Shown here: positions 8,093 through 51,487 of the stretch, in pieces
Position numbering within the stretch: the stretch's first letter is position 1
Layout: each line of letters opens with the position of its first letter
DNA from: a virus
Length of the DNA: 64,000 nt
Reading direction: 5' to 3' (one strand)
IMG/VR virus record: IMGVR_UViG_3300009103_002187
Coordinates: 1-64,000 of that record
The notes under the pieces: model-generated
Told to the model about the DNA's origin: nothing
The model's input: only the letters and a program-made list of their open reading frames with translations
The model's database searches: none
Translations under genes and position numbers: made by a program

Positions 8093-9325
8093 TTATTTGT
8101 CATTTCTCCAACAGACAAACGTGGGAAATCTAAGACTGCCGTCAGGAGTCTCTTCCTGATATCGAATTTCTGCAATTCTGCCAATAAAATCATCAGGTGC
8201 GCTCCAGATCAATAGGCGCATCTCATCGGTTAGGCCGCTTCCCACTCCAACCTCAACACCCTTGTAATCAACAACAAGAGCTCCGCAAGTATCAGAAAAC
8301 TTTCCTGTACCTTGCTCAACCCGAAGAACCTCACAATCTGCATCGTGAAATGCCTTAAGCTTCATCACTTCTGGACCTCGACCAAATTTATAAGGCGCGT
8401 CAAGATCTTTGATCATTGCCCCTTCATAACCTTCCTCAACAAATCTATCATGAAGATTTTTAATATCATCATACTCTGAGTCAACAGGAAACCTTTCTAC
8501 TACTTTAAGGAATTGAGATGAATCAATTTTTTCCAAGTTTTGAATCCTTTTAACAAGAATATCATATCTTTCTTCACAGCTAATTTTCGCCTGACGGTCT
8601 TTCCACTCTCTAAGCGGGAGATAGTCAAATAAGGAAAGATATGTTCCTTCAGTATCTACATCTTCTTTTCGATACGCTTGACGCATCAGCGCAGTAAAAT
8701 CCTCACCCATGATCTCGCCATCATAACATCCGTCCCCCAGCTTGGCAAGTGATGCACCAACTGTACTGTCAAAATTTGTGATTAGCTTTCCAGACCGTGC
8801 ATAAAGAAGAGCATGACTATCTTCAACAATTGCAAAGCATCGAATTCCATCAAGCTTCGGTTCAACAGCGATCCGTTTTCCAACAATTCGTTTTTTCTCA
8901 AATTTTTGAGCAAGTGCAACATCAAAAGTTGGAATTAGTCCTGGGAAAACCTTATTAATTGTCTTTGTCGAGGCACCCATGTTAAGATGCTTTTTAAGCA
9001 CCCTTCTCATCCATTTCTCTTCTTCCTTTGACGCAATACAAAAAACAGACTGAATCAATTCAATCGCTAAATTTCCCGTATACTCCCTCTTTTGACAGAG
9101 ATCAGCCACCTCAAAGAATGAATTCCACCGAAGAACCTCATCTTTCGCCGGATAACGATTTTTAACTGCAGGAACCTTTACAACATTAAAGGTCAGAAAA
9201 GGATCACCCGCATATCTCAAAATCTTCTTAAGCAGGTCGTTGTCTTTGTTTTGTAGAAGAATTTTAGACTTTAGCTTAGGGCCTCGTGCCTTAGAAATTT
9301 CTTCTAGAATTTCAGTTATGTTCAT
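8093..9325 (-). CDS. lig: ATP-dependent DNA ligase
   Basis: Motif I EPKLDGIR, III DGEI, IV EGAMIK, V KLK, VI SLRFPTF. Confidence 0.95.
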   Translation of the reverse strand: MNITEILEEISKARGPKLKSKILLQNKDNDLLKKILRYAGDPFLTFNVVKVPAVKNRYPAKDEVLRWNSFFEVADLCQKREYTGNLAIELIQSVFCIASKEEEKWMRRVLKKHLNMGASTKTINKVFPGLIPTFDVALAQKFEKKRIVGKRIAVEPKLDGIRCFAIVEDSHALLYARSGKLITNFDSTVGASLAKLGDGCYDGEIMGEDFTALMRQAYRKEDVDTEGTYLSLFDYLPLREWKDRQAKISCEERYDILVKRIQNLEKIDSSQFLKVVERFPVDSEYDDIKNLHDRFVEEGYEGAMIKDLDAPYKFGRGPEVMKLKAFHDADCEVLRVEQGTGKFSDTCGALVVDYKGVEVGVGSGLTDEMRLLIWSAPDDFIGRIAEIRYQEETPDGSLRFPTFVCWRNDK

Positions 9326-9581
9326 TATCACTCTTGTTATTTTTGGCAAAAATCATTTCTTCCCAAATGAGAAATACAACTCCATCTACCAATACTTTCC
9401 AACATCTCTTTGAATCTTTTCCTGTAAGAGAACTCTCTCCGCAATACTCGACTAAAAGACCGCGCGATTCGCCCTTAAGAAGGCGCATTCCCAAACTTCC
9501 CTTTTCACAAAGATACCTTCCAGGTTTTAAAAAAATTAAGTCACCAGGGCTTAATTCATGTCTTCGTCGTCTAATTGACAT
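9312..9581 (-). CDS. Hypothetical protein (SH3-like, 'PGDLI')
   Basis: ORF within the operon; beta-rich small phage protein. Confidence 0.45.
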   Translation of the reverse strand: MSIRRRRHELSPGDLIFLKPGRYLCEKGSLGMRLLKGESRGLLVEYCGESSLTGKDSKRCWKVLVDGVVFLIWEEMIFAKNNKSDNEHN

Positions 9582-16729: not shown

Positions 16730-17209
16730 TTATCCTACCTTGGAGTTTTTAAAACCGACTCCTGCAAAACCAATTGTAACTCCTTCTTCTGACCTGTTAA
16801 TAGGTGCTCCGTAGTTATGCCAGTGTTGTTCACTAACACCGCCCATAGTATCAATTATTGACTGAATCTCACCTCTTATAGCCTTTCTTAGCTTTCGCTC
16901 TTGAACCCGTTGTTTATCGCTTTCAATTGTCTTCAAGATTTCACTTCTAATAGCCTTTCTCAGCTTAGCTTCCTCAAGATCAACTTCAACTTCTTCAATG
17001 TTGACATCTCCTGAGACATTAACATTGACATTGGTTCCTTCGGCTTTGTCATCTTCTTCTTTATAAAATAGAGACTCTACGCTTGAATTCACTTGATGAG
17101 GCGCGTGTGATGAAACAGGCTCTTCAAAATGATTTTTCTCTGTTAAAAGGTCACTCTCTTTATTATGTAAACCTGCAAGCTCTAGAAGCCTGTTGCTGTT
17201 AAATTCCAT
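16730..17209 (-). CDS. Putative virion-internal protein with two LRKAIRxEI motifs
   Basis: NRLLELAGL, KLRKAIRSEI, KLRKAIRGEI. Confidence 0.55.
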   Translation of the reverse strand: MEFNSNRLLELAGLHNKESDLLTEKNHFEEPVSSHAPHQVNSSVESLFYKEEDDKAEGTNVNVNVSGDVNIEEVEVDLEEAKLRKAIRSEILKTIESDKQRVQERKLRKAIRGEIQSIIDTMGGVSEQHWHNYGAPINRSEEGVTIGFAGVGFKNSKVG

Positions 17210-17280
17210 TATTAGCACTCCAATCAAAATTCACAGTATAAATCTAATTATGCGCTAATTTAGTTAAGTTTTATGTTTTT

Positions 17281-18512: not shown

Positions 18513-19637
18513 TCATCCCACCTTTTTTATAGCTTCATCAAAAGTTTCTTTTAATATCCTTCCGTACTCCGTTCCCTCAGGATTGTCAAGGCCAGAATTT
18601 TCAAGCATTGCCTGGTGCGTTGTAACAAGCCAACAAACTTGCATAATTGTCTGTAAACCAGCTAAATTCCATTCATCTTCAACTAGCTCATCTTTATTAT
18701 AATCACCTCCCGTGAGAGCTTTTTCTAAATCAGATGAAGTTTGAACAACCTTTAAAAACTTTTCATATCCCCCAGCTTTTTCCATAATTTCTCCAACGGT
18801 TCCCAAACTTGAAATCTTAGCACCCTCAGACACTATATCTTCCATCACAAAGACCTTCATGGACTTCTCACCCTCTTCCGCAAGAGATCGAGCATCCTTG
18901 TCTTTATTGACAGCATTCTGAACCTCACCCCAACCTAACCATGCCTCCATCGTTCCAAATTTGCTGTCTGTATCAATAATCTCTTCCTCATTTAACGCAA
19001 AGATATCAGTCAATCCTTTTCGATGAATAGATTCATTCTTTTTTACTCCCAATAAAGCATCCAACTCCTTAACAACTTCCCCATCTGGATCTTCATCAAC
19101 AAGTGGGCGCATTAAAACACCGGCCTTTTTAGGCTCCTTGCTAGCAAATCCTGATTGTGAAAGAAAGGCAACCGGAGCTAGCGCAAATGCCCAGTTGTGT
19201 TCGGGCCTACTAAATGATCCAGGATCTGCTCCAGCACCTCCATAACCTCCCAATGGGCCTGTTATATATTCTTTATAAACCTGCCCGAGCTTATCGCGGA
19301 GCTGATTAGAAGTTTTTCCTCCTGCAAGGATCCTATCATATTCGGGTTTCATCCAAGGAAAGATGGTGATTAGAATGCTGTGCCCTATTATCTTTACAGC
19401 TTTCTTAGCAGCGTCCTTAACAGCTTTTCCTATCTCTGTAGATGCTTTTTTAGCTGCTGTGCCTACCTTTCCAATAGACGCACCGATCGCGGTGCCCACA
19501 TCGGGAGCAGCCTCAGATAACAGCTCAAGCTGATCCTCAATTGTCAAATTCTCCAAAATTTTCTTTCTCATTGGAGCATTATTCATGTATGCGATGATCA
19601 TCTCATCTGTTAGCTTGTCTTCTGGTCCTGTCAACAT
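18513..19637 (-). CDS. Hypothetical protein, possibly virion-internal
   Basis: 374 aa; LSE/LNE motifs; ATAATTA element upstream. Confidence 0.55.
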   Translation of the reverse strand: MLTGPEDKLTDEMIIAYMNNAPMRKKILENLTIEDQLELLSEAAPDVGTAIGASIGKVGTAAKKASTEIGKAVKDAAKKAVKIIGHSILITIFPWMKPEYDRILAGGKTSNQLRDKLGQVYKEYITGPLGGYGGAGADPGSFSRPEHNWAFALAPVAFLSQSGFASKEPKKAGVLMRPLVDEDPDGEVVKELDALLGVKKNESIHRKGLTDIFALNEEEIIDTDSKFGTMEAWLGWGEVQNAVNKDKDARSLAEEGEKSMKVFVMEDIVSEGAKISSLGTVGEIMEKAGGYEKFLKVVQTSSDLEKALTGGDYNKDELVEDEWNLAGLQTIMQVCWLVTTHQAMLENSGLDNPEGTEYGRILKETFDEAIKKVG

Positions 19638-19726
19638 TGGGCCGCCTTGTTATAAATCATAAGGATCTTCTGCCATTGTATAATTATAATGTGGCACCCT
19701 AACTATGTAACAAGGAGATCAATTAA

Positions 19727-20491
19727 ATGACGACAATAGCTCGACTGCGGACCGTGCTTTTTACCTTTTTCTCACTCGCAGTCTGTGGCTGTATAAATTA
19801 TGCTAGTGGCGATTCCACAAGGCAGCTCCCTGAAAATACTGGGCCAAACATTATTGAAAGTGTTTCTCTCAATCACGTTGAGTCTCAAGCAAGAAACGCT
19901 GCTGTAAAAGTTGTTCATCCTCTAGGTGAGGGATATGGATCAGGAACATACACAATTATTAAGGGTGAGCATGTAGTATTAACAGCAGCGCATGTAGTAG
20001 ACGACAATCGAAGAATGATCATCTCGGGAAGAAACGGAGAAATGGTCGTCGGAGAAGTCATCTACACAGACTTTGGAGCAGATTTTGCTGTAATACACGT
20101 ACCACGTCTACGAACAAGAACACCAATACCGTTTAAGCCTAGAAATGAGAGATCCGACAATTTTATCGGAGACTGGACGACATATACTGGGTTTCCTTCG
20201 GGACATGACTTGACAACAATCACGGGAAGAATTGCAAGCATTGATGAATCATCAGACATCTTAATCATGCACGGTTACACCTGGATGGGTGCTTCAGGAT
20301 CTGGTGTTTTCGACGAGCACGGAAATTATATTGGAGTTTTAGTCGCTGTAGATGTTGGTCGATATCGTCAAATTCCTCAAATCGTCGAAGATATGGTCTG
20401 GGTGGTGCCTGTCAGACAGTTAAATCTAGTTAGCGTATTTGCAAAGATAGAAATGCATAGTCATGTTACGGAGATTCCCCATGCACCTTAA
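19727..20491 (+). CDS. Secreted trypsin-like (S1) serine protease
   Basis: TAAHVV (His), DFAVI (Asp), GASGSG (Ser); N-terminal signal peptide; AGGAG SD. Confidence 0.88.
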   Translation: MTTIARLRTVLFTFFSLAVCGCINYASGDSTRQLPENTGPNIIESVSLNHVESQARNAAVKVVHPLGEGYGSGTYTIIKGEHVVLTAAHVVDDNRRMIISGRNGEMVVGEVIYTDFGADFAVIHVPRLRTRTPIPFKPRNERSDNFIGDWTTYTGFPSGHDLTTITGRIASIDESSDILIMHGYTWMGASGSGVFDEHGNYIGVLVAVDVGRYRQIPQIVEDMVWVVPVRQLNLVSVFAKIEMHSHVTEIPHAP

Positions 20492-21362
20492 AAAGATACT
20501 TTTTGGTCTTTTCGCTTCTTTTTCCCTAAGCTGTACCCAGGATTTCACTGTAGTCGACAAAGAAGAAACATACGTCATCATTGATTCATTTGTTCAAATG
20601 GAGCAAATTGGAAGCCTCGACATTCTTGTAGTTCTCGACAGATCTGGATCAATGCACGATAATGAAGATGAGGTGGGTACCGGAATGGAGCTTCTAAGAA
20701 CTGATATTGGTGGGTTAACTGGGGACTATCAATTTGGCTTTATTACCACAGACGGATCAAATCTGGGATATGTCGGACCATATGACTCTAGCTCTTCAGC
20801 AATTGACCTGCTTTTAGCCCCTAGCTTGCTCCCAGCTAACGCACACGGAGAAGCAGGATTTGAATCAACATACGTTTTTCTTAGCAGTGACGAAGGAATT
20901 CAGTTTAGAAGAACAGAGGCTGACTTTTTATTATTCCTAATCTCTGACGAGGAGGAACAAAGCTCAATCACCACCAACATATTTTATGATTGGTTGCAGG
21001 CAGAGTTTTCAAACGTGAATCATGACGTCGTCTCAATCACCACGTTAGAAAGCTCAACTCTGTGCAGCGCATGGGAATATGGTTATAAATACGAAGAACT
21101 TGCAAATCTTTACGGAAAAGATGCAATCGACATCTGCTCAGAAGACTGGGCAATCTGGCTTTCAGAAAGCTCATTCCTAACACGACTCAAGGATTATATC
21201 GAGCTTAGTCACACACCCATTGCTTCCTCGATCGTGGTATACGTAAATCACGAATCGATCTATGGGTGGTCATACGATGAAGAAACAAATACCATCTACC
21301 TAGATGACACACCCGATTATGGTGCGGTGATTGAGGTGGGATACGATGTGGTAGTTGAGTAG
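20481..21362 (+). CDS. vWA-domain lipoprotein
   Basis: Lipobox SLSC; MIDAS DILVVLDRSGS, ISDEEE; C-terminal beta module. Confidence 0.8.
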   Translation: MHLKKILFGLFASFSLSCTQDFTVVDKEETYVIIDSFVQMEQIGSLDILVVLDRSGSMHDNEDEVGTGMELLRTDIGGLTGDYQFGFITTDGSNLGYVGPYDSSSSAIDLLLAPSLLPANAHGEAGFESTYVFLSSDEGIQFRRTEADFLLFLISDEEEQSSITTNIFYDWLQAEFSNVNHDVVSITTLESSTLCSAWEYGYKYEELANLYGKDAIDICSEDWAIWLSESSFLTRLKDYIELSHTPIASSIVVYVNHESIYGWSYDEETNTIYLDDTPDYGAVIEVGYDVVVE

Positions 21363-21365
21363 ATT

Positions 21366-23927
21366 TTAAGCTTCTCTTAAAATTGATCGCACTAATCTTC
21401 TTAAAGACTCGGCTGCTTGCTCTTCTTCAGGCTGAAACTCCTCAGGCGACAGATTTTCAGGCTGGGCAACTATAGGCTCTTCAATCTCTTCTGGCACCTC
21501 TTCTGGCGTGTCATCAACAGAAATTTCTAGAGGTGCAGTGGTTGTTGCTGTTGTAAATTCAGACTTAACAATCGACTTCCAACCTCTCATGCCAAGGATC
21601 TGCGGCCCTGTGGACTTACCGTCATTTCGTGCTTTTAAACTAAAATATGGATTTCCAGACGGTCCCACATTTGCCTTAAGCGTTGTTCCATCGGTAATCC
21701 ACTCAAATTTTAAATTATCTAAAAATCCCTTCGCCCCACCGATATTTTCAAGATCAAACTTTTCAATAATCACAGTGACTTCTTCTTTGCAGAGCCAACA
21801 AACCCGAAGAACAATAATCGTCTTTGGTGTCGATGAATCCTCTCGAGTTTCTCGACGGGGTCCAGCCCCAAGGAGATCTTTAGCCCCGGGTATTTTTCCA
21901 TACATATCAGACCTTATATCAAAAAACGCTGCCATGATATCATCTTTAAATACCTCAGTAAAAGGTCTTCCGCTTAAAGTCGGTGGATCATGCTTTATTT
22001 CACCTATCTCGAGCTGCTCTCCGCTTAACAATTTTGCCAAATCCTCATAGGTCGGTTTCATTGCCTCTTGATAGGCCTCCTTAGCTAGATTAAATTTTCG
22101 GAAAATTGTATCAACCTTTTTCATCAAGTCGTCGATTTTCTCCTTGACTTCAGGATCTTTGACAGTGCTTATAAGGTTTGCGTACGCTCCTTTTGGATCT
22201 TTCCAGGAAATGTACTCTTTGTCTTTACCTCTTGGTGACCTCAGTTGAGGATCTTTCTCATCAGGTGGCAATCGATTCTTTCGATAAGTGTTGGCTTCTT
22301 GCACAGGGCCGTATATAAGATTTTTGATTCGGGTGACCTCCTCCTGTTGCTCAGAAGATAATTTTTTGAATTTTTCATTATTTTCTGTATAATAAGTCAC
22401 ATCTAAGAATTTTGCAATTTCCTCTCTTTGCGCTCCGGATTCCATGAGTCCGTCTCTGGCAAGAGTTCCTGCGGGTCGAACAAATCTGCCATCCATTTGA
22501 TTTGCATCCACAGACCCACTCTCATCTCTAAGATAATCTGTTAGCTTATCTTTCATATGCAAATCAAAAATAATTTTCGTTGCCTGATCATAGAGATCTC
22601 TAGAATAATATCCTGAAACAGCTCCAAAAATTTTATCTTCCAACTCTTCCGGAGTGGGCTCTTCCCGTTTTAATTTCCTAATATTCCCAAATCTTCCACC
22701 CTTTACCTCCTCGTTAAATTTTACGTGAATGTCTGAAATATCAGTTGGAACATCAACCATACCCGTATCTTGACCAATAGTTGTAATTAAAGGTCTACCA
22801 AGACCTTCTCGAAAAATTGGATTCTTTGTTACAGCTGTGTAAGCTGCTCGATATAAGGCAAATATCGTCTTCCTTTCATCGTCAGACAAGCTAGGATCTG
22901 TAAAAATATTTTCTGCGTCAGGCGTGTCTTCAAAGGTACCCGGGACAGGTAGCTCACCATTACCCCCGCGAGGACTTCCTAAAAGCGCATCCAAAACTGA
23001 AAACTCCACAAGTTTTCCAATCTTGACCCCTTCACGACCGCCTGTCATATTGGGAAAACAAGGCTTGGGAGGTCTCTTACATTTTGTATTTGCCTCTTGA
23101 ATTATGCGAGAGATATATTCTCTAATCAATCTGCTTGAAGTTTTATTTAGAACCTCATTCACTTTGTCAACTGCTTTTCGAGCATTCACAGGATCTCTCT
23201 TTAGCTTTGGACCAATATAGTCCTCAAAGTCAAAAAGATAATCCCTAAATGTTGAATGTGATGCCATATAATTAAGCAGCCCCTCGAAGGTCAAGACCAT
23301 GTCAGGGTGAAGATTGATATCTAGCACCTCTAGGATCTTTGCAGGATCTTCAGTTCGAACTGTTTCTCGACCCTCCATCAAAAAAGTTTGGGGGTTTCCA
23401 TCAACTCGAACCTGCAAGCCTCCCGGATAAGCGATCGCATATTTCACCTTGCGTTCAGTGGTGCATGCTGCGTCACTCTTCTTCCGAGCGATCAGATTGA
23501 TCAAGGCATTTCGATATGCTCCTTGAATCCCATTTTCATCAACACCTGCGAAAAGCCACGATGTGTGGTTAATATTTTCACCAGGCATGATGTCAACCTG
23601 AACATACTTTCCCGTGGGGCCTTCTGATAGATTAAAGATGGGATACTTCACGTGAATATTACTTCCCATCTTTCGAACATTTTCAGAACCCAGCGCTGTT
23701 GAAAGAAATCTTTCTAGTCTCTCCTTAAAGACAGGCTTGGAATCTCCCATGGGAATTTCAACAGTGATATCAGCATCTCTGCTGACCGTCTTCTTCCCTG
23801 TGCTTCCAATCATCCTATAGGTGTTAATACCTGCAGGGTGAAGATGATTTCTCAAAAAATGATCTAGCGTTGGCTTACAATCCTCTCGATTAATTCCAGA
23901 GGTTCCAACAAATATCGCGCCACCCAT
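21366..23927 (-). CDS. Multidomain protein: N-terminal Pol-beta-like nucleotidyltransferase plus an unknown (possibly nuclease-like) domain
   Basis: GSTGKK..SRDADI...VQVDIM triad; linker RLIREYISRIIQEA; C-terminal ESLRRLVRSILREA. Confidence 0.6.
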   Translation of the reverse strand: MGGAIFVGTSGINREDCKPTLDHFLRNHLHPAGINTYRMIGSTGKKTVSRDADITVEIPMGDSKPVFKERLERFLSTALGSENVRKMGSNIHVKYPIFNLSEGPTGKYVQVDIMPGENINHTSWLFAGVDENGIQGAYRNALINLIARKKSDAACTTERKVKYAIAYPGGLQVRVDGNPQTFLMEGRETVRTEDPAKILEVLDINLHPDMVLTFEGLLNYMASHSTFRDYLFDFEDYIGPKLKRDPVNARKAVDKVNEVLNKTSSRLIREYISRIIQEANTKCKRPPKPCFPNMTGGREGVKIGKLVEFSVLDALLGSPRGGNGELPVPGTFEDTPDAENIFTDPSLSDDERKTIFALYRAAYTAVTKNPIFREGLGRPLITTIGQDTGMVDVPTDISDIHVKFNEEVKGGRFGNIRKLKREEPTPEELEDKIFGAVSGYYSRDLYDQATKIIFDLHMKDKLTDYLRDESGSVDANQMDGRFVRPAGTLARDGLMESGAQREEIAKFLDVTYYTENNEKFKKLSSEQQEEVTRIKNLIYGPVQEANTYRKNRLPPDEKDPQLRSPRGKDKEYISWKDPKGAYANLISTVKDPEVKEKIDDLMKKVDTIFRKFNLAKEAYQEAMKPTYEDLAKLLSGEQLEIGEIKHDPPTLSGRPFTEVFKDDIMAAFFDIRSDMYGKIPGAKDLLGAGPRRETREDSSTPKTIIVLRVCWLCKEEVTVIIEKFDLENIGGAKGFLDNLKFEWITDGTTLKANVGPSGNPYFSLKARNDGKSTGPQILGMRGWKSIVKSEFTTATTTAPLEISVDDTPEEVPEEIEEPIVAQPENLSPEEFQPEEEQAAESLRRLVRSILREA

Positions 23928-23975
23928 ATCAATGACTCCGTCTATATGTTTTAATTATCTTGTAGATTACCCCTC

Positions 23976-25217
23976 TTACACAAGAGGGACAGAAATTTTT
24001 GCTGGAGTTTTACCGTACCTAAAAAACCCAAGGAGCTTATTGATCGGTGTAAACATTCCAGTTAGCTTACGTGTCTTTCCATTCCACTTAAAGACCACGC
24101 CTTCTGTGGCAGTCTCAAAGAGTGACTCGTTGGTCGCAAGCCTGGCAAGCGCAACTCGGATGCTTTCCAATTGATCCGGATTGGCCTCAATTCGATTCTC
24201 ATCATATGCTTTTCGAATCTCCTGGACCCGATCAGTGATCTCCTTGTGATTACTCGCAGTAAGACTAAACTCCAAGTTTCGAAAGGCATAAGTACCCACG
24301 CGTTGGATGATCTCCTCTAGAGGAATGATCGCTTCAGATACCGCTCGAGATCGACGAATCTCGACCTCTTTAAACTGCTCCCAATTCTCAGGGGGTGCAA
24401 CCTTTCGAAATTTCTTGTGCAAATTTCCTCGTCCAGTAGCTAGACGAACAGCGGTATCTTTGATCAAAGACCGAGGAATAAATCGATACCTTTGATCAGT
24501 GGAGATGTGCTGTCGAACAAGCTCAACAACCAGGTCACGAATTGTGTGTGACCGACTCAATCGAGATGATCCCAGCAAAGCATCCAAGTCGTCAGTAAGG
24601 CTTGCAATTCGATCCTCGCCTTCAATCAAAATTTTCTTTACCTGTGCTTCAGGTGTGTGATCAATCTTAAAATTATCAATCAGAACCTTGGCAGAGCTCA
24701 CAAATTCCTCATAAAGCTTCACATCAGACTCGGACCCAGGAGCAACAGCTGCAACTTGAATGAATCGAATCGAAGGCTCATCATAAGCAATGGTATTCGA
24801 GCTAGATGGGTGCAACAAGGCGGTCTCAATGAAGATCTTGCCGTCCTGAAAGAGATCTGAATATTCGATCGCAACTGGCATCAAGGCCCGATAAGCCTCA
24901 GTAAATGCAGTTAGAATATGGGGGTTGTCAGCATACCTCATCTGAATGTCCACGAGATCCATGCCTCCTCCGGACAACAGACGTCGATAGGAGGCCCCTT
25001 TGCTGAGAAACTTCAAATTTCCCTGATGCACCGTAAAGGTTACATTTTGACCATCCATTTTCTCATCTAGCTGTGTAAGCGATCCAAACAATGCTGCCTC
25101 GATCATCTGATACAGCTCACCGATCGGCATGTCCAGATCCTCATAAAAGTGATAGATGTGAGCATCCAGTTTTTCTGGAATAGGCACTGTCTTACCTTGA
25201 TACATTGGAACGATCAT
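23976..25217 (-). CDS. RNA-ligase-like covalent nucleotidyltransferase (DUF6267-like)
   Basis: HIYHFYED, motif I EKMDGQN, motif IV EGVVF, motif V-like KLTG. Confidence 0.6.
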   Translation of the reverse strand: MIVPMYQGKTVPIPEKLDAHIYHFYEDLDMPIGELYQMIEAALFGSLTQLDEKMDGQNVTFTVHQGNLKFLSKGASYRRLLSGGGMDLVDIQMRYADNPHILTAFTEAYRALMPVAIEYSDLFQDGKIFIETALLHPSSSNTIAYDEPSIRFIQVAAVAPGSESDVKLYEEFVSSAKVLIDNFKIDHTPEAQVKKILIEGEDRIASLTDDLDALLGSSRLSRSHTIRDLVVELVRQHISTDQRYRFIPRSLIKDTAVRLATGRGNLHKKFRKVAPPENWEQFKEVEIRRSRAVSEAIIPLEEIIQRVGTYAFRNLEFSLTASNHKEITDRVQEIRKAYDENRIEANPDQLESIRVALARLATNESLFETATEGVVFKWNGKTRKLTGMFTPINKLLGFFRYGKTPAKISVPLV

Positions 25218-26023
25218 CCTACTAGAATTCCCCCTACTATCTCTCGAAGCATTGCCTCTTGTGTGTTTCTTTTTAGCATTAAATCTAGCACGCGATCCTT
25301 ATCCTCAGGCGTGTAAATCGCTGGGAGAAAATCGCGGACATTCTCTCGTTCCATCGTCCGAATTTGGCTTCCTCGCACAGTGATCTTTCTAATCATGTCA
25401 GCCTTAAGCTGTGGAGATAGATAAGGCAGCTCATCTCGATAAGCTGTTAGATCGCCGGACTCGATGGCACACTGTGCTTTTAGAAGTCGATTCATGGTCT
25501 GATCTGGCTCCTGGCCCGAGTCCGTTCGAAACTCTCTGAGAATCGAGGTTCCCTCCAGGCGAGTGTAGATCTTTAGATCCTTTCTGCCTCCGTAAATTGT
25601 TAGACCCACATGAGTCGGATCCACATTTGGGATGTTAAATTGAGAAAGAACCTCACTTTTAGTCGTCCCATGATTGACCTCATCGATTACACCCCGGACT
25701 ATCTGGAAGACGTCACCGATCGGTGTTGACTTACCTATCTCACCTGTGCTCTTTTTTGGGGGCCCTGGTAGAACAGGAAATCTCGCATAGACAAGCTTGG
25801 GCAATGTCTGTTTTAGCCGATAGGTGATCCCTGTCCACCCATCATGACCTTCCCACATCTTTTCCACTGCCTTGTCAGTGATCTCCACCCCGGCACCTTT
25901 CTTTCGACCTGCACCTCCAATGATCAGGATCACACCGTCATTTTCTCGATGTGCTAGGACAAGCTTGGCAAAATGGCCAGAGTGAAAGGGCTTAAAGCCT
26001 CCAGTAAAGATTCCAATATTCAT
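25214..26023 (-). CDS. HxGH (cytidylyl/adenylyl) transferase-like protein
   Basis: GIFTGGFKPFHSGH; RGSQIR near the C-terminus; terminal EAMLREIV motif. Confidence 0.7.
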   Translation of the reverse strand: MNIGIFTGGFKPFHSGHFAKLVLAHRENDGVILIIGGAGRKKGAGVEITDKAVEKMWEGHDGWTGITYRLKQTLPKLVYARFPVLPGPPKKSTGEIGKSTPIGDVFQIVRGVIDEVNHGTTKSEVLSQFNIPNVDPTHVGLTIYGGRKDLKIYTRLEGTSILREFRTDSGQEPDQTMNRLLKAQCAIESGDLTAYRDELPYLSPQLKADMIRKITVRGSQIRTMERENVRDFLPAIYTPEDKDRVLDLMLKRNTQEAMLREIVGGILVG

Positions 26024-26667
26024 TCCTTCTCCTTGTTTTGATTTTCAATTAGTTGATATATCCTTGCCACCAATCCCGAAAGATTTTCCAAATTCAATCT
26101 TGCATCAATGGTTACCACATTGTCCTCGTCCACATCCAATTTACACCATCGATCCAAAAGTGTCAGAGGATCATCCAGTGGAAGTTGAGAGATCTTCTCA
26201 ACTGAGACTGGTGTAAAGTCCCACATGTCCACACAAACATTTACTCTCTTTCCTGAAATTGGTCTTCCTGTGTGAATATGACCGTGAATTTGTAGATCAT
26301 AGTTTGCAACCAGGTCGTGTGGCATAGGATAATGACAGATAAAAACTCGTCGATCATCAGGTAACTGATAATCCAGTGCATAGTGAACTTCGTCAAATCC
26401 TGACTTCAACATCTTAGACACACTACTATCGTGATTTCCCTTGATCAAGATCTTTCTACCGTTCAACTGTTTTACTATCTCGGTGCCCTTTTGAGAACCA
26501 CAAAGAAAAACATCACCAACGACATAGACTGTATCATCATTTGACACAGTTTTATTCCATCTCTTGATAATTTCATTGTTCATCTCATCAACTGTTTCAA
26601 AGGGCCTTCCGCAATACCTGATAATATTTTCATGACCAAAATGCATGTCTGAAGTAAAATAGTCCAT
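26020..26667 (-). CDS. Calcineurin-like metallophosphoesterase
   Basis: SDMHFGH, VGD, GNHD, HYP, HGHIH. Confidence 0.9.
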   Translation of the reverse strand: MDYFTSDMHFGHENIIRYCGRPFETVDEMNNEIIKRWNKTVSNDDTVYVVGDVFLCGSQKGTEIVKQLNGRKILIKGNHDSSVSKMLKSGFDEVHYALDYQLPDDRRVFICHYPMPHDLVANYDLQIHGHIHTGRPISGKRVNVCVDMWDFTPVSVEKISQLPLDDPLTLLDRWCKLDVDEDNVVTIDARLNLENLSGLVARIYQLIENQNKEKE

Positions 26668-26672
26668 TGTTC

Positions 26673-27644
26673 CTACAAAAAAGACAGATAAACTCTGCCT
26701 CTAACAGCTTGATTCAAGGCATGAAGATAATCTAGCTTTTTCTTTGACGCTCCAAATTTTTTCTTCTTTTCAATTGATTTATCAAGACGATTGCTAAAAT
26801 CATTGTATAGATCATGCAAAAATATATCAGCATAATCAATCACTTTGGCGTCAGCGAGAGTTCTAGATAGACCATTAATTCCTTTTGCAAGATCATCTAG
26901 ATCAATAGCATCAGGATTAACACCAGGGTTCTCTGTAAGCAATCTGTTCCTTGGCGTTCCACCTTCCAATAGATAGTTTGCGATGTCAGTCAAGAAGCTT
27001 CTAGGATTAACAGAGATCATTTCTAAATCAAAATTCTTTCGACACCTCGTTGAAACTCTTTTTCCTTTTCGAACTTTTGCAGTCACACCCTCTGTTCCAA
27101 TGCTTATCGTAAGTGCTGCACCCAGTGCCGCATAAAGATTACCCATGATGTAACCTTTCAATCCCCTCTCGGGACAGTATCTCGCCCGCATCCAATCTTG
27201 ATAACGAGGGAATGTCATCACCATGTCAACCTGAACATATCTTTCATCAGGTAGTTTCATAATTGCCATAGTTGGAGATGATCGCAACGTCTCTATGATG
27301 TCAACAATCTCAGGCTTGCGCTCCTCAACAAACTTAGCAAAGTCTGATTCATACGCAGCTTTAATTCGATTTTCTTCTTTGCGCCTCTCCCACTCTGTTC
27401 CTTGAAAATCTCGAGGAAAAGGAAGACTAACTAGATAGTCAACATCACCGTATGCAACATCATTGCGCTCCTCAAAGTCTATCATGCTATAAGCTGATGA
27501 TCCCACAGCCTGGAGAGGACAAATCTCTGCCTCCCTAAGCTCTCGCCAATCATAAATCAGCTTCTTATATAGACTAATAGACTCTAGCGCGATCGACGGC
27601 GTGATGACAGTCGTCCGCGTCTTTTGTGATTTCAAACCACCCAT
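26673..27644 (-). CDS. Pol-beta-like nucleotidyltransferase
   Basis: MGG start as in 21366-23927; VGS...YGDVDYLV...VQVDMV; GLKG. Confidence 0.6.
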   Translation of the reverse strand: MGGLKSQKTRTTVITPSIALESISLYKKLIYDWRELREAEICPLQAVGSSAYSMIDFEERNDVAYGDVDYLVSLPFPRDFQGTEWERRKEENRIKAAYESDFAKFVEERKPEIVDIIETLRSSPTMAIMKLPDERYVQVDMVMTFPRYQDWMRARYCPERGLKGYIMGNLYAALGAALTISIGTEGVTAKVRKGKRVSTRCRKNFDLEMISVNPRSFLTDIANYLLEGGTPRNRLLTENPGVNPDAIDLDDLAKGINGLSRTLADAKVIDYADIFLHDLYNDFSNRLDKSIEKKKKFGASKKKLDYLHALNQAVRGRVYLSFL

Positions 27645-27660
27645 ATCTCACCTTATGATC

Positions 27661-27688
27661 ATTATACCACATGATCAAGAGGTTTACA
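27661..27688 (-). promoter_or_regulatory. Class I promoter TGTAAA-N16-TATAAT
   Basis: Shares ATGTGGTATAAT with the promoter at 12159. Confidence 0.6.
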
Positions 27689-27979
27689 TTAAAAATCGGA
27701 TTCTTCTATCAAACCTTTATTGACGCCAGCTCTTAGTGCCTTTTTTCTAAGAAATCGAAGACTTTCTAAACATCGAGTAATCCGATCTCTTTCTTTTCTA
27801 TCTCTCTGGGGTAACTGGTGTCGGATCGACTTCAACTCTGTGATAATCTTATCATAATCATCTACGTGTGCAGAAGAACCAAATTCCACCTCTGAGCCTT
27901 CAAAGGTATGATATCTTCGCTCTCTAGACTCATTAATAACACTCTGAATCAGAGTTCTCAAATCTTTTTTCGATAACAT
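27689..27979 (-). CDS. Hypothetical protein with N-terminal LRTLIQSVINE motif
   Basis: Shared motif; ATAATTA upstream. Confidence 0.55.
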   Translation of the reverse strand: MLSKKDLRTLIQSVINESRERRYHTFEGSEVEFGSSAHVDDYDKIITELKSIRHQLPQRDRKERDRITRCLESLRFLRKKALRAGVNKGLIEESDF

Positions 27980-29914: not shown

Positions 29915-30341
29915 GCTCTTTCCTTTTATTCAAAATTAATTTTCTAGTTTGAATTACATCACTATAAATTTGATCAACAGATTTTGAGTATTCTAAATCT
30001 AGCTCAGTAACCTCATCTAAATCGTGTGTATACACCTCGACCCTAACAACATCTGAGTCAATTTGCAAAAATCCGTGGTGATCAGTCTCATCTTGATGCT
30101 CAAGAACAAATGCAACAAACTTACGAAGATCTTTGTAAAATTTAAACTTAAAAGATCTTCTAATCCTATTGGGTGACTCTAACATTTCCCATTTGGACTC
30201 TCCAACCTGTAAAGGCAGGCCGTTATCTACTTCTTCTTTAGAATATGCACCGAAAGTCTTAAGTACTATCTCAGAAGAATCTGATGATTCAAATAAACCG
30301 TTATTCTTGAATATTCTTGATACTGTTCTATTCTTAAGCAT
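29904..30341 (-). CDS. Pterin-4a-carbinolamine dehydratase-like protein
   Basis: W...I.RSFKF..F....DHHG...V.VYTHD...VTELD. Confidence 0.8.
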   Translation of the reverse strand: MLKNRTVSRIFKNNGLFESSDSSEIVLKTFGAYSKEEVDNGLPLQVGESKWEMLESPNRIRRSFKFKFYKDLRKFVAFVLEHQDETDHHGFLQIDSDVVRVEVYTHDLDEVTELDLEYSKSVDQIYSDVIQTRKLILNKRKEREF

Positions 30342-31716
30342 TCTTAGCGCCGCGCCCTTGTTTTGCGTATAACTTGTCAAGCTTATTACCAAATGCGCCT
30401 TTCAAGATTTTAGCAACAACTTGATCTGGTATCAGATGATATTGATCAATCACATCTTGCAAGATCAAGCCTTGTATGGGATTGTTTGTGCTGTGAGGTC
30501 GCTTGACTCTCTTTCCATGCTTTTTTGGGCTGGCAAATGTGTGCCACTTTGCCTGAAGATGCCTTGCATCCTTTATCTCCTTATCGTACATCTCCTTGTA
30601 GAGGCCTTGCGCAAACAGCTTAAAAGCAGCCAAATAAGCTGAATGATCTGGGCCTTTCCCCACCTTGAGATCGCTTAATCCTGTCTTGCCGCCATCGGGT
30701 AATACTTCCTCTACAGCTGGGTTTATTCCTATCACAAGATCTCTAAAGATCGTAAATGTTACAGCCTCAATATTATGCGCAGTTCCAAATTTTTCCATAT
30801 CATATACAATAGGTAGCTTTTTACCAGGTGGGGGCAGATCTCCCAAGAGCTTTAGGTCGTCGTAGATAATATTTCGAACATTATTGAGACCCGTTCCAAT
30901 CTCTTGCGCAATGAGCTTAATTAAATCTCCTAAATTCATTCTTCTAACAATGTCTGGCGTTAGCTTTTCAGCGCCCAGCTCAGCAGACACATGATTAGCC
31001 AAGGCTACCCCTGTCGCTTCCTCAACAGGGTTTAGATCGTATTCATGACCGGGTGGCAAGTCTTCTATATTACCCCTGGCCTCACCACTGTCCCCTTCAG
31101 CAGCTCCTGGGTCATCAAGATCAGACAAGTCTTCTGACCCTGGCGTGTATGATCCAAGCGCCTCCAAGGCTTCAGGATCCTGCTCTGCTGCCATGATCTC
31201 TTCATGGGATGGGGCACCCCATTCATCCTCGTCTTTTTTCTTGTCTTTCCATCGATGTTGAGATCCCATGGGCTCGTCACCCCACCTTGCACCGGGTCGC
31301 CATTCTGGATCACCTGGCTGTGGAATCATCCCAGGGCCGACTTCGATCAAAATCTTTCGAATTGCTGCTCGAAGATGGGATTCATTTTGATTCTTTTGTC
31401 TGGCTCTTTTTCTAGCATTTCTTGCCACTCGTTTTACCTGTCGCTTAACCTTGTCAGACTCATCCTCAGGTACCTGAGATAAAACAGATATTAAAGATTG
31501 AACTAGCTCATCTTCACTAGACAGCGGGTCACCTCCCAAACTGGGCTTCTCTTTCGCCTTTTTAAGGGGTTGAACATCCATAGTTTCATCAGGTTGCACG
31601 GGTGGTTCATTTATGACTCTCGGCGCTGATTTGTCACCGGTACTTTTTTCCTTCCCCGCGTCCAAAAATTCCTGAATAATTTGGCGTACGGCACTCTTTT
31701 TAACAACTACTTTCAT
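30334..31716 (-). CDS. Putative virion-internal protein
   Basis: MKVVVKKSAVRQIIQE and internal ESHLRAAIRKILIE motifs; ATATTTA upstream. Confidence 0.55.
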   Translation of the reverse strand: MKVVVKKSAVRQIIQEFLDAGKEKSTGDKSAPRVINEPPVQPDETMDVQPLKKAKEKPSLGGDPLSSEDELVQSLISVLSQVPEDESDKVKRQVKRVARNARKRARQKNQNESHLRAAIRKILIEVGPGMIPQPGDPEWRPGARWGDEPMGSQHRWKDKKKDEDEWGAPSHEEIMAAEQDPEALEALGSYTPGSEDLSDLDDPGAAEGDSGEARGNIEDLPPGHEYDLNPVEEATGVALANHVSAELGAEKLTPDIVRRMNLGDLIKLIAQEIGTGLNNVRNIIYDDLKLLGDLPPPGKKLPIVYDMEKFGTAHNIEAVTFTIFRDLVIGINPAVEEVLPDGGKTGLSDLKVGKGPDHSAYLAAFKLFAQGLYKEMYDKEIKDARHLQAKWHTFASPKKHGKRVKRPHSTNNPIQGLILQDVIDQYHLIPDQVVAKILKGAFGNKLDKLYAKQGRGAKNA

Positions 31717-31786
31717 TATAGCACCCTCAAGATAAATAACTTTCAATCTATAAATATTGAGGGAAAATTATTAATACAATCAATCA

Positions 31787-32308: not shown

Positions 32309-33370
32309 TCAATCTTGGAGCAATCCTGCAAGTCGTTGCCATCGCTCCATGATTAAATTGTCAGACTTTTTCGTCCCCTCTTCAACTGGGTCGAAAGGAA
32401 GCGACACATTAAACTTACCTGATTCAAGACCTGTATAAATTGCTGACTTAGTCGCATCCTGATCTGGGCCCATAGTCTTGTGATCAACCTGGGGCATATC
32501 AGCTCGAGCAGGTGCTCCTGAGTTAGAAGGAATATCGCTTAAATTGCCTGCAACCTTTTTCGAAATTGCATCGATAACAGTTTCGTGGTCAGCACCCATC
32601 TCAAATCCTGCCCACTCAGCAACTTTCTGACTCTGTGCTGCTGCTGATAAAAACTCATTATTTAACAATGCACCCGGTGCGTTTGGATCAGTCTGATTTC
32701 CAACATTATCCTTGATCATCTGCTCGATGGTCTCAGAAGACGCTCCCAAAATATTCGTGGGAAAAGGATCGCTCTCTGACGGTTGGGGTAGATCTGGCGC
32801 TTTATGCGCAGCAACTGCTAGCTGTGTCGCAGCCAGCTTTTCCTCCGTGCCGCCTGGAAGATCCAAATCTCGAGCTACTATCTTTCCGCCACCCTCTTTT
32901 CCTAAGATTCCCCAAACACCGGACCACCGGTGATGACCATCCATAACCTCATTGCCTGATACTGAAATCTCTCCATGTCCCATCTTTTTAGTCAATAAAT
33001 TCTCAAGCGCACCAATGCTAGAAAGGGGAAAGCTTACAGACTTCATTAGGTCAATCTCTCGCTGTGTAGGAATAAGCCCGCCAACGTCTATAGAGGAAGC
33101 TCCCCCAATATCAACGACATCATCTTCAACCTTATTGTCATAATCACCCTGTAGAACTGTTTTTAACAAATCGTCATCTGCAGTATTTACCAGACTTCTC
33201 ACAGCAGCAGGTCCTGCCTTGACAGCAGCAGCCACCTGATCATCAAGCTCTTCAGCAGTTTCTGCCTCAAAAATTAGAGAAGTAATCGAAGAGACCCTTG
33301 TTTCTCCAGCAAGCTCTTCCTGGATTAGCCTTCGAATTCCAGCTCTTAACTTTTTCTCACTAAAACCCAC
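32309..33370 (-). CDS. ParB/Srx-like domain protein with head-cargo motifs
   Basis: LIPTQREI...VMDGHHRW; KLRAGIRRLIQEEL; ERWQRLAGL. Confidence 0.65.
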   Translation of the reverse strand: MGFSEKKLRAGIRRLIQEELAGETRVSSITSLIFEAETAEELDDQVAAAVKAGPAAVRSLVNTADDDLLKTVLQGDYDNKVEDDVVDIGGASSIDVGGLIPTQREIDLMKSVSFPLSSIGALENLLTKKMGHGEISVSGNEVMDGHHRWSGVWGILGKEGGGKIVARDLDLPGGTEEKLAATQLAVAAHKAPDLPQPSESDPFPTNILGASSETIEQMIKDNVGNQTDPNAPGALLNNEFLSAAAQSQKVAEWAGFEMGADHETVIDAISKKVAGNLSDIPSNSGAPARADMPQVDHKTMGPDQDATKSAIYTGLESGKFNVSLPFDPVEEGTKKSDNLIMERWQRLAGLLQD

Positions 33371-36819: not shown

Positions 36820-37200
36820 TTATCCTTGTTTCTGAGTTCCAGCTTTCATTTTTAAATAAACTTGTTTCATGGCATTATCAACATCTTCTGGCTTGCGCTG
36901 GGCAAGATTTTTTGCATCAAATAGAGCTAAAATCTCTTCAATCATCTTTCGAAATACTGGAAACTCTGAAGAAAGTAGGCCTTTAGAAGCAACAATCTGA
37001 TCTTTGGCCCACATCCCAACTTCCATTCGTGCTGCCATCTTCTCCTTATCTTCCCCTTGACCGGCTTCTGCAGGTGCTTCAATTCCCTCTGTGGATCCAC
37101 CGCCTTCAACGTCAGACCCAATGTCTTCTTCGGAGTCTTCATGCAACCTTGTCATCTCTTCTCGAATAATTCTCTTAAGCTGTCCTTTTGTAACTCTCAT
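36820..37200 (-). CDS. Putative virion-internal protein
   Basis: MRVTKGQLKRIIREEM. Confidence 0.55.
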   Translation of the reverse strand: MRVTKGQLKRIIREEMTRLHEDSEEDIGSDVEGGGSTEGIEAPAEAGQGEDKEKMAARMEVGMWAKDQIVASKGLLSSEFPVFRKMIEEILALFDAKNLAQRKPEDVDNAMKQVYLKMKAGTQKQG

Positions 37201-37210
37201 TTTTAAATTC

Positions 37211-37909
37211 CTATTTTAAAGCTTTGGCAATCTTGTCAGCTCTCTTGAAACGCTCATCAATCACACCCCAGTCAAGCTCTTTCATCATAGCATAAATATA
37301 CGTCTTGCGGTTATTAATATAATCCCTATAATAAGAATGCTCCCAGCAATCTAAGACGATGACAGGATAAAAACCTGCAGGAAGATTGGAATTATGCAAG
37401 TCAACAATACAGTTCACATATGTCTGTAAAAATGTGCTAAACCCGGTCACCACCCAACCATTTCTTGCAGAAAGTGCACAGGCAATAAAATCCTTCTGCC
37501 ATCGATCAAATGTTCCAAAGTCTCTCTCTATTCTCATAAATGCGAGAGAATCCATGTTAACCTGACTGCGAACATCGCTGATATTAGCAAAGAAGAGCTC
37601 GTGCAAGTGAACAGCGTTGAGGTTATAAACCTCATCGATCTTAAGTGATCGATACTGGGAGTGATTTAGGCTCGCAGCTTCGCGATCAACAGCATCAAGC
37701 TCAGCGCTAATCCGATTCAAAGTTTTAACATACTTCTCATAAAGCGTTTTGTGTGCCTTTTTATTCTTCGCACTGAGTAGCTCAGTGGGAAGATCAAATT
37801 CCTTGATCTGTGCCACATAGGCCTCATTTAGAGTTTTTTCAGTTTCAGAATCAAGACCTAAGCTTTCTCTCACCAGGTCTCTAATATCGCCATTTTTTAA
37901 ACTATCCAT
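37211..37909 (-). CDS. sod: Fe/Mn superoxide dismutase family protein with an N-terminal extension
   Basis: HKTLYEKYV, LHELFF, IERDFG, GW, LDCWEHSYY. Confidence 0.85.
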   Translation of the reverse strand: MDSLKNGDIRDLVRESLGLDSETEKTLNEAYVAQIKEFDLPTELLSAKNKKAHKTLYEKYVKTLNRISAELDAVDREAASLNHSQYRSLKIDEVYNLNAVHLHELFFANISDVRSQVNMDSLAFMRIERDFGTFDRWQKDFIACALSARNGWVVTGFSTFLQTYVNCIVDLHNSNLPAGFYPVIVLDCWEHSYYRDYINNRKTYIYAMMKELDWGVIDERFKRADKIAKALK

Positions 37910-44631: not shown

Positions 44632-44636
44632 AGCTT

Positions 44637-51205: not shown

Positions 51206-51487
51206 TTAAGCATCGCCGAACAAAACAAATACTCTATCAAAAAAAGTTATCTCAAAACCAGGCGGGAAAAACATTTCTTTTCCTGACTCGGTGATAACTG
51301 ACAATGGAGATTCTAGCGTCACGGTTTCTGAGTGGGGTTGAGGAAAAATGTCATAAATATAAACTTCATTTCCATGTGCATTCTCAAGTCGCTGGAGCAG
51401 CTCATCAACGTGCACCTCGTACGTAAAATAAAATGTTAGTCTACTTTTCTCATTCTCAGCGATATATCGATAAATGTCCATCTTCAC
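51206..51487 (-). CDS. Hypothetical protein
   Basis: ORF coupled to the upstream gene. Confidence 0.5.
   Translation of the reverse strand: MKMDIYRYIAENEKSRLTFYFTYEVHVDELLQRLENAHGNEVYIYDIFPQPHSETVTLESPLSVITESGKEMFFPPGFEITFFDRVFVLFGDA

Follow-up and report, generated by a model that had tools for sequence, protein, structure and literature searches.

We identified a five-gene nucleotidyl-transfer block, genes A to E, on the minus strand (21366-27644) of a 64,000-nucleotide stretch of viral DNA. This stretch, referred to below as the window, comprises the first 64 kb of the 79.8-kb IMG/VR record IMGVR_UViG_3300009103_002187, which is estimated to be 27% complete and thus implies a phage genome of about 300 kb. 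The block encodes two polymerase-like nucleotidyltransferases, a metallophosphoesterase, a divergent nucleotidyltransferase of the HIGH superfamily and a ligase-type protein. Together with a 96-amino acid (aa) open reading frame (ORF) upstream of A, it may form a heal-fill-seal cassette that repairs breaks and gaps in DNA. We favor this interpretation, to which we assign slightly less than an even chance. The block is probably a version, built from unclassified families, of the fill-and-seal designs of viruses and bacteria, linked here to capsid delivery of the T4 type. The genes and their parts are as follows, where "tag" denotes a short recurrent sequence that is described below.

96-aa ORF, 27689-27979, minus strand: N-terminal tag MLSKKDLRTLIQSVINE, C-terminal end ...GLIEE followed by SDF.
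A, 26673-27644, minus strand, 323 aa: predicted miniature family-X-polymerase-like nucleotidyltransferase, starting with M-G-G.
B, 26020-26667, minus strand, 215 aa: calcineurin-like metallophosphoesterase.
C, 25214-26023, minus strand, 269 aa: divergent HIGH-superfamily (cytidylyltransferase-like) nucleotidyltransferase with a C-terminal tag.
D, 23976-25217, minus strand, 413 aa: predicted ligase-superfamily nucleotidyltransferase of the RNA-ligase type.
E, 21366-23927, minus strand, 853 aa: PolX-like N-terminal domain and a C-terminal region.
E N-terminal domain (E-N, residues 1-280), 23088-23927, minus strand: predicted second PolX-like nucleotidyltransferase, followed by tag SRLIREYISRIIQE.
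E C-terminal region (573 aa), 21366-23087, minus strand: no recognizable fold, ending in tag LRRLVRSILREA.

The five ORFs are separated by short gaps or overlap. A and B lie 5 nucleotides apart, B and C as well as C and D overlap by 4 nucleotides (ATGA), and 48 nucleotides separate D from E. The original prediction, made from the sequence alone, had described a contiguous, mostly coupled nucleotidyl-transfer block forming an uncharacterized module. The gene layout and the relatives of the block bear this out and show the module to be conserved; a counter-defense role, which was also proposed there, is conceivable. All of the motifs that it listed are present and fall at invariant or near-invariant columns of the family alignments, which makes them more than chance matches. 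Related viral loci (L-numbers) and homologous proteins (P-numbers) were gathered with a D-family alignment, which yielded 23 viral loci with a D homologue, and with an A-family alignment, which yielded 37 loci. The D protein alone as query found no related loci, and when the block was compared with 50,697 phage records by blastn, no matches were returned.

Protein A and E-N carry the Pol-beta palm signature of family-X polymerases, with a GS motif and three catalytic carboxylates. In A the motifs are G48-S49 ... G66-D67-V-D69 ... V-Q-V-D140, and G48, S49, D67, D69 and D140 are invariant in an alignment of 66 sequences. The corresponding motifs of E-N are G41-S-T-G-K-K ... D51-A-D53 ... V-Q-V-D112, with G41, D51, D53 and D112 invariant in 21 sequences. 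The A family is large, comprising 155 clusters at 50% identity. An AlphaFold2 (AF2) model of A based on 66 homologues (predicted local distance difference test, pLDDT, 96) consists of a palm, a thumb and a C-terminal helical hairpin, and its best 50 Foldseek matches are all Pol lambda or Pol beta. When the model was compared with 48,161 representative chains across the PDB, the top nine were family-X (PolX) enzymes with Z scores of 8.4-10.5. Residues 6-254 of A align with residues 142-338 of Pol beta (Z 10.5, 187 aligned), followed by TdT (Z 10.2), Pol lambda (Z 10.2), Pol X of African swine fever virus (ASFV; Z 10.0, 168 residues aligned to a 176-residue chain) and Thermus PolX (Z 9.8). The next class, consisting of GLD-2, OAS1 and TUT7, reaches Z scores of at most 8.2 and matches the palm only; non-PolX enzymes of the Pol-beta superfamily align over only 105-124 residues, and cGAS-like chains score 6.8-6.9 at a root-mean-square deviation (rmsd) of 9-10 Å. 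This ranking argues for gap filling and against roles of the CD-NTase, MenT or CCA-adding type, which we rejected on this ground. The original assignment of two Pol-beta nucleotidyltransferases stands as far as the fold is concerned, specifically as a PolX-like palm and thumb.

Comparison of the A and E-N family profiles with hhalign (probability 94.9%, E 4.4e-8, 193 columns) identifies the two as homologous, and E-N as a paralogue of A. The Pfam DNA_pol_B_palm model weakly matches 2 of the 21 relatives of E-N (E 0.0045), and these matches together with the homology to A mark both as miniature PolX-like enzymes. Neither DNA_pol_B_palm nor the thumb model matches A or any of its 66 relatives, and the palm model finds nothing in six frames of the record, a control of low sensitivity. 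Sequence and profile searches of the PDB with A, D and E returned noise only, and none of A, D and E-N reaches the curated cut-off of any Pfam family. Both A and E-N begin at the palm (M-G-G) and lack the 8-kDa 5'-deoxyribose phosphate (dRP) lyase domain and the fingers (helix-hairpin-helix) domain, which are likewise missing from ASFV Pol X. Judged from the model of A and the homology of E-N to it, the two are polymerase-like enzymes with predicted nucleotidyl-transfer activity. RlaP was considered as an alternative identity for A and E and rejected, with no matches to PF10127 at E 0.1 nor in six frames at E 10.

The second member of the block matches the Pfam family Metallophos (PF00149) at 28.2 bits (cut-off 21.5) and phrog_547 (E 1.7e-52), in agreement with its original identification as a metallophosphoesterase. 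Its metal-binding motifs (DxH, GD, GNHD, H, GHxH) are intact, and D7, H9, D52, N78, H79, H112, H130 and H132 are invariant in 15 sequences. The best NCBIfam match is to PdeM, a phosphoesterase of the ligase-associated DNA-damage response, although the score of 26 bits is far below the equivalog cut-off of 150. B is presumed to be a 3'-end healing enzyme. Metallophosphoesterases of the lambda type are reported to have 2',3'-cyclic phosphodiesterase activity (PMC2190708).

Protein D contains the motifs K53-M-D-G-Q-N and E372-G-V-V-F. K53, D55 and G56, which form the KxDG motif I of nucleotidyltransferases of the ligase superfamily, are shared by 90% or more of 24 homologues, and E372, G373, V375, F376, R383 and K384 are invariant in the 24 sequences as part of a conserved EGxVF...GKTRK block. 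Based on conservation and order, E131 fits motif III, E372-G-x-V-F fits motif IV and K381/R383/K384 fit motif V. The AF2 model of D (24 homologues, pLDDT 84) confirms the ligase-like character proposed originally, both in Foldseek and in the PDB-wide search, where the top 40 chains are all ligases. The closest are Naegleria Rnl5 (Z 8.6, 187 aligned, rmsd 4.7), T4 Rnl2 (Z 8.3), T4 Rnl1 (Z 8.1), fungal Trl1 (Z 7.8) and the ASFV DNA ligase (Z 7.5), and Foldseek matches Rnl3 with a probability of 1.00. The nucleotidyltransferase domain falls into two parts, between which about 180 residues (about residues 190-370) form a helical insert. There is no oligonucleotide-binding (OB) domain, as the chain stops about 30 residues past motif V with only a helix in the model. 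The Pfam RNA_ligase family (PF09414) matches D at 16.8 bits, below its cut-off of 27 and over motif I only, and weak matches to this family are found in 21 of the 24 homologues (best E 2.1e-6). Taken together, the model and the motifs point to a ligase fold of the RNA-ligase type, with a predicted sealing activity.

In an alternative that had been proposed originally, the block repairs RNA, and tRNA in particular. B would then heal the 2',3'-cyclic or 3'-phosphate termini that anticodon nucleases produce, A and E-N would restore 3' nucleotides in the manner of RlaP, which adds 1-2 nucleoside monophosphates (NMP) to damaged RNA (PMC12776372), and D would seal the RNA. A ligase, a Pol-beta nucleotidyltransferase and a phosphoesterase form an RNA-repair "syntax" described for jumbo phages (PMC7824862), and the structural ranking of D, its missing OB domain, the PF09414 matches of its homologues and the cyclic phosphodiesterase activity of lambda-type relatives of B would all fit such a role. 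So would a tagged CCA-adding enzyme in the window and the presence of a separate canonical DNA ligase in the phage. However, A and E-N do not match PF10127, and they resemble family-X DNA polymerases over both palm and thumb, whereas RNA-specific nucleotidyltransferases match over the palm only. The polynucleotide kinase, 2H, RtcB and Hen1 partners of RNA repair are missing from the cassette, and the window contains no tRNA genes. We consider RNA repair the main rival, though the less likely of the two.

Protein C has the motif F-H-S-G-H17, and its family conserves GGFKPF(H/T)xGH and (V/I)RG(S/T)xxR. G16, H17 and R222 are invariant in 15 sequences, so that both the (H/T)xGH signature and an (S/T)xxR signature of the ISSTxxR type are present. 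In phmmer searches of the PDB, C matches the NMNAT domain of NadR (6gye) with an E-value of 1.7e-4 over 47 residues. Its matches to NCBIfam NMNAT models are weak (TIGR01526, 23.6 bits against a cut-off of 341), PF01467 does not match, and C fails all curated cut-offs. The nearest Atlas clusters are exclusively viral PF01467 clusters. On this sequence evidence C is a divergent enzyme of the cytidylyltransferase superfamily. Enzymes of the HIGH family transfer NMP to phosphate-bearing acceptors, which makes nicotinamide mononucleotide (NMN) and a terminal phosphate the candidate acceptors of C.

If C were an NMNAT, the block might belong to cofactor or signaling metabolism, with C regenerating NAD+ and the Pol-beta-fold proteins making or destroying signal nucleotides, both of which had been suggested originally. 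The only cellular sequence matches of C are indeed NMNAT domains, and cGAS-like and OAS chains occur in the fold list of A. For NAD regeneration, this comes down to the 47-residue similarity to NadR; C scores below the PF01467 and NMNAT cut-offs, there is no Nampt or NAPRTase gene in the 80-kb record, and C has no Nudix or kinase partner. Its conserved fusion partner is instead an enzyme with a ligase fold. Signal-nucleotide synthesis or degradation found no support, as the cGAS-like chains score 6.8-6.9 against 10.5 for PolX. We give this explanation very little probability. Membership of C in the cytidylyltransferase superfamily also invites the idea of a DNA hypermodification or nucleotide-sugar pathway, in which C would activate a phospho-sugar and the other proteins would install it with the help of a nucleotide-sugar epimerase and a dehydrogenase encoded at 43603-45647. 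However, these two genes lie at a distance of 18 kb, relatives do not keep them in synteny with the cassette, and the ligase and PolX-like folds would be left unexplained. Such a pathway is highly improbable.

The genes of the block are syntenic in relatives and in some cases fused, as would be expected of the module originally proposed. The order A-B-C-D-E(N) is kept in a clade of colinear loci (L002, L004, L009-L012, L015 and L023), and C-D-E(N) is kept in other surroundings (L005-L008, L016 and L017). Fusions join C and D (P0005, P0010), D and E(N) (P0003, P0006, P0009, P0011, P0026) or all three, C, D and E(N), in proteins of 934-1444 aa. B directly adjoins an A homologue in 19 of the 37 loci, in either order. 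Six of these 19 show the reversed order, B then A, at about 30% identity, and some of them have no C or D nearby. This pattern of linkage and fusion divides the cassette into two sub-modules, A+B and C+D+E(N).

In an unrelated lineage, proteins P0070 and P0075 contain a DUF6267 domain (KWDG...EGYVF) fused to an A-like and an E-N-like domain. Cyanomyoviruses have a similar adjacency, in which a DUF6267 protein (T4-GC71) with ligase motifs (KWDG...EGYV) lies next to a HIGH nucleotidyltransferase, the cytidyltransferase T4-GC190, with the same unusual motif, P-x-T-T-G-H. T4-GC190 is a core protein of cyanophages (PMC3037559) and adjoins DUF6267 in P-HM1. Fusions of the two are common, including that of S-PM2, and the Atlas holds a cytidyltransferase-DUF6267 fusion cluster of 78 members as well as viral CTP_transf_like + DNA_pol_B_palm clusters. 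The model of D matches phage proteins annotated as "cytidyltransferase-like domain-containing" with template modeling (TM) scores of 0.71-0.72, and the S-PM2 protein more weakly. The DUF6267 model does not recognize D. In an hhalign comparison with a small DUF6267 alignment, D is collinear over 323 columns with the motifs aligned, although the match is not significant (E 0.21). We therefore treat D and DUF6267 as equivalent partners and do not claim homology. Unlike the cassette, the cyanomyovirus DUF6267 loci have no detected PolX-like or phosphoesterase neighbors; hidden Markov models of A, E-N and C detected nothing among the genes flanking DUF6267 in S-CAM3, P-HM1 and Mel-JY01.

Three of these cultured phages show details of their own. 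In S-CAM3 (L026:4040-5751) and P-HM1 (L027:4016-5778) the DUF6267 protein carries TKWDG and PEGYV ligase motifs, and its gene overlaps the start of a 188-aa "cytidyltransferase" (P-P-T-T-G-H) just downstream of mazG. The cultured Microcystis phage Mel-JY01 (PP395634, 190 kb) encodes a 639-aa fusion of a HIGH nucleotidyltransferase and a D-type ligase-like domain (L025:5281-7200). It is annotated only as "cytidylyltransferase like protein" and lies 2.6 kb upstream of the large terminase gene. This phage might serve as a model for experiments.

The enzymes might also share no pathway at all, being independent proteins that are co-translated and co-packaged as tagged cargo. This would follow the logic of polyvalent proteins, of which capsid-packaged multi-enzyme examples are documented in phages (PMC5512222). 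Every fusion coincides with a tag or cleavage junction, relatives have exchanged the domain that follows E-N, and the same tag occurs on many unrelated proteins of the window. However, DUF6267, A-like and E-N-like domains recur together in the unrelated lineage, the HIGH nucleotidyltransferase and DUF6267 are neighbors and are also fused in T4-like cyanophages, and A and B adjoin in both gene orders. Unless the functions are coupled, it is difficult to see why these four kinds of domain should come together repeatedly in lineages and arrangements that are unrelated, and we regard a mere shared packaging route as improbable.

In the repair cassette that we favor, B would remove blocking 3' groups such as a phosphate or cyclic phosphate, A would add nucleotides as a miniature family-X-type polymerase with E-N as a second one, and D would self-adenylylate on Lys53 and then seal the nick. 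C may act on a phosphate-bearing cofactor such as NMN, or on a terminal phosphate. The enzymes would act on nicks, gaps or abasic-site intermediates of phage DNA, perhaps filled with a ribonucleotide patch, which an enzyme of the RNA-ligase type can seal. Relatives translate the parts as polyproteins, and the enzymes would probably enter the prohead, be separated by cleavage and be injected along with the DNA. The "heal and seal" logic of a phosphoesterase plus a ligase, part of the original prediction, remains viable in this scheme. We lean towards a DNA substrate in view of the PolX palm-thumb fold, the pairing of polymerase and phosphoesterase, the precedents of ASFV and Phaeocystis globosa virus (PgV), and the putative co-delivery with DNA. 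T4 Rnl2 is reported to seal duplex nicks in which the broken 3'-OH strand is RNA (PMC3884662). The structure entry of Naegleria Rnl5, the best match of D, is titled "nick-sealing RNA ligase". Bacterial LigD carries out ribonucleotide-patch DNA repair, and a scheme of this kind would reconcile the DNA and RNA clues. In its most specific form, T4-related marine and giant phages would carry the kit in their heads, cleave it into single enzymes with the head protease and inject these with the genome. The enzymes would patch nicks, gaps or abasic sites made in the incoming DNA by host nicking or glycosylase defenses, possibly by way of a ribonucleotide patch, and the HIGH enzyme would supply or recycle the ligase cofactor (e.g. 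NMN to NAD+) or adenylylate a terminal phosphate. This complete scenario we think rather unlikely.

Several observations weigh against DNA repair by an injected cassette. D is nearest to RNA ligases and lacks the OB domain of DNA ligases, although the ASFV ligase scores only about one Z unit lower, and the phage encodes a canonical ATP-dependent DNA ligase elsewhere (8093-9349). Fold Z scores of 8-10 are moderate. No AP (apurinic/apyrimidinic) endonuclease, dRP lyase or 8-kDa domain is seen in the cassette, and the role of C is unexplained. The tag junctions at which fusions occur could reflect co-packaging and not a shared pathway. RNA-directed enzymes carry the tag too, as seen in a 952-aa protein (51484-54342) with a class II CCA/poly(A) polymerase head domain (residues 335-459), in which a tag-like linker, SSIRAAIREEL (about residue 300), separates the N-terminal and head domains. 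With respect to delivery, A and E in the window start with M-G-G and have no leader, and no prohead protease of the gp21 type (PF03420) is found in the 80-kb record, itself a 27% fragment.

The original prediction had noted a cargo tag on two proteins, and C and E indeed end in tags (MLREIVGGILVG and LRRLVRSILREA, respectively), with a further copy inside E at about residues 265-280. By regular-expression scan, at least ten ORFs of the window that are not related in other respects carry L(R/K)xx(I/V)(R/x)... close to the N-terminus or to a domain border (for example 16730-17227, 27689-27979, 30334-31746, 32309-33370, 36820-37200 and 37211-37909). In the fusions, module borders consist of an amphipathic LRxxIRxx-type stretch that ends in (L/I/V)-x-E, with the next domain directly after it. 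Among 131 N-termini of A-family domains, 26 begin with M-G-G and 100 are preceded by other residues. Glutamate occupies position -1 in 95 of these 100 and L, I or V position -3 in 93, and a conserved GG follows. Many of the leaders are just 8-10 residues long, e.g. MRAKEFIIE followed by GGW. The (L/I/V)-x-E motif likewise precedes E-N in fusions, and in the window I-P-E precedes the conserved core of D.

These leaders resemble the capsid-targeting sequences of T4. In the 10-residue T4 sequence, residues 8 and 10 determine processing, and gp21 cuts after glutamate (PMC9026906). T4 internal proteins IPI, IPII and IPIII as well as Alt share the leaders of 8-10 residues with (L/I/V)-x-E, and the processing of Alt at both termini parallels the C-terminal tags in the window (PMC9026906). 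A gp21-type protease scores above the Pfam cut-off in all five larger related contigs, including that of the syntenic locus L004, which places the window in a lineage of T4-related giant phages. The simplest reading of the leaders and the protease is that the proteins are prohead cargo that would be cut into single enzymes. Unlike the T4 internal proteins, the cargo would consist of repair enzymes, the tags also occur at internal junctions of polyproteins, and the system is known here from genes alone. According to mass spectrometry, purified virions of the cyanophage S-SM1 contain the cytidyltransferase T4-GC190 (PMC3037559). At the level of the family, we judge packaging of these enzymes about as probable as its absence. 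For this phage the likelihood is lower because A and E start with M-G-G and lack a leader.

PolX domains like that of A also occur inside multi-domain proteins of 1116-1708 aa (P0118, P0155, P0164 and P0172). One of these has an Amidoligase_2 domain and one a DUF6934 domain, and (L/I/V)-x-E followed by GG is found right before each A-like domain. They look like cleavable polyproteins with other cargo.

The 96-aa ORF belongs to the gene set, since the A proteins of L003, L009 and L010 include its counterpart as their N-terminal part. In the window the two are separated by a 44-nucleotide spacer (27645-27688) with an extended -10-like TGGTATAAT element and a AAGGTGAG Shine-Dalgarno sequence. The counterpart of this spacer in relatives is an uninterrupted frame (...GLLxE followed by GGLK).

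A full-length search with E found one homologue only, and its 573-residue C-terminal region matches nothing in Pfam or the PDB. The domain that follows the second PolX-like domain varies among relatives and is of at least three unrelated types (e.g. L002:12086-13288, L004:12092-13333, L010:12137-13363, L011:12104-13393 and L013:12167-13336). Pfam searches of the extensions of seven relatives gave nothing significant. Two of the types contain D...(E)xK stretches (e.g. GEDL...YELKK and SDVYV...IEVK) that are reminiscent of PD-(D/E)xK nucleases. For the possible PD-(D/E)xK motif in L002, L004 and L010, the best Pfam match is RE_NgoPII (E 0.13).

The cassette can be compared with several known systems. 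ASFV pairs a minimal palm-thumb PolX (174 aa) with a virus-encoded ligase in the virus's base excision repair (BER), and its virions carry both enzymes. However, no similarity can be detected in sequence, D has neither the OB nor the DNA-binding domain of the ASFV ligase, and ASFV has no HIGH nucleotidyltransferase, metallophosphoesterase partner or second polymerase paralogue. Bacterial LigD unites a polymerase, a 3'-phosphoesterase and a ligase, the first being a primase-polymerase of the archaeo-eukaryotic primase (AEP) type and the second having a phosphoesterase fold of its own, and bacterial PolX-PHP joins a PolX core to a PHP phosphoesterase domain. Both share the add-clean-seal triad with the cassette, in which the A-B pair mimics PolX plus phosphoesterase, although all of the folds differ. 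The PolX-ligase fusion PgVPolX of Phaeocystis globosa virus 16T has been shown experimentally to fill and seal BER intermediates (PMC5537341). It has a full Pol-beta-like core with dRP/AP lyase and an NAD+-dependent ligase of the LigA type, whereas the cassette has miniature polymerases and an OB-less fold of the RNA-ligase type, in separate genes or putative cleavable polyproteins.

The RNA repair systems T4 Pnkp/Rnl1, bacterial Pnkp-Hen1 and RlaP with RtcB or Rnl have the same syntax of ligase, nucleotidyltransferase and phosphoesterase (PMC7824862, PMC12776372), and the phosphatase module of Pnkp is likewise reported to be a dinuclear metallophosphoesterase (PMC3675462). The cassette differs in having no kinase and no Hen1, in nucleotidyltransferases that are PolX-like and not RlaP-like, and in the HIGH nucleotidyltransferase as an obligate partner. 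We found no paper that describes the cassette or gives A, D or E-N a function, in a literature search whose scope did not extend to a 2016 survey of RNA repair in Nucleic Acids Research (NAR). Surveys of jumbo phages and of NAD-ADP-ribose (NAD-ADPr) metabolism do not mention the cassette.

The four enzyme families are widespread in uncultured marine and freshwater phages, both T4-related and giant. The cassette offers a way to test whether leaders of the T4 capsid-targeting type serve to deliver enzymes other than Alt and the internal proteins. If it is a fill-and-seal system, phages would gain a repair pathway so far known only from eukaryotic giant viruses (ASFV, PgV), and the proteins known to be injected would come to include repair enzymes made in advance. 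The compact polymerases and the OB-less ligase would then be of possible biotechnological use.

Other genes of the window encode GroEL, the ATP-dependent DNA ligase mentioned above, a large DNA polymerase and the CCA-adding-enzyme fusion, and the related contigs are largely colinear with it. A six-frame search of the 80-kb record, a 27% fragment, returned no matches for DUF6267, Peptidase_S77, RlaP, NAPRTase or CTP_transf_like. Between E and the next conserved gene (18513-21362) lie three genes that are missing at the same position in relatives. They comprise a 374-aa ORF on the minus strand and, on the plus strand, a Trypsin_2/S32-like serine protease (19727-20491) and a 299-aa ORF (20463-21362). 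A homologue of the protease is found only in L009, at a different genome site, and the trio looks like a local insertion.

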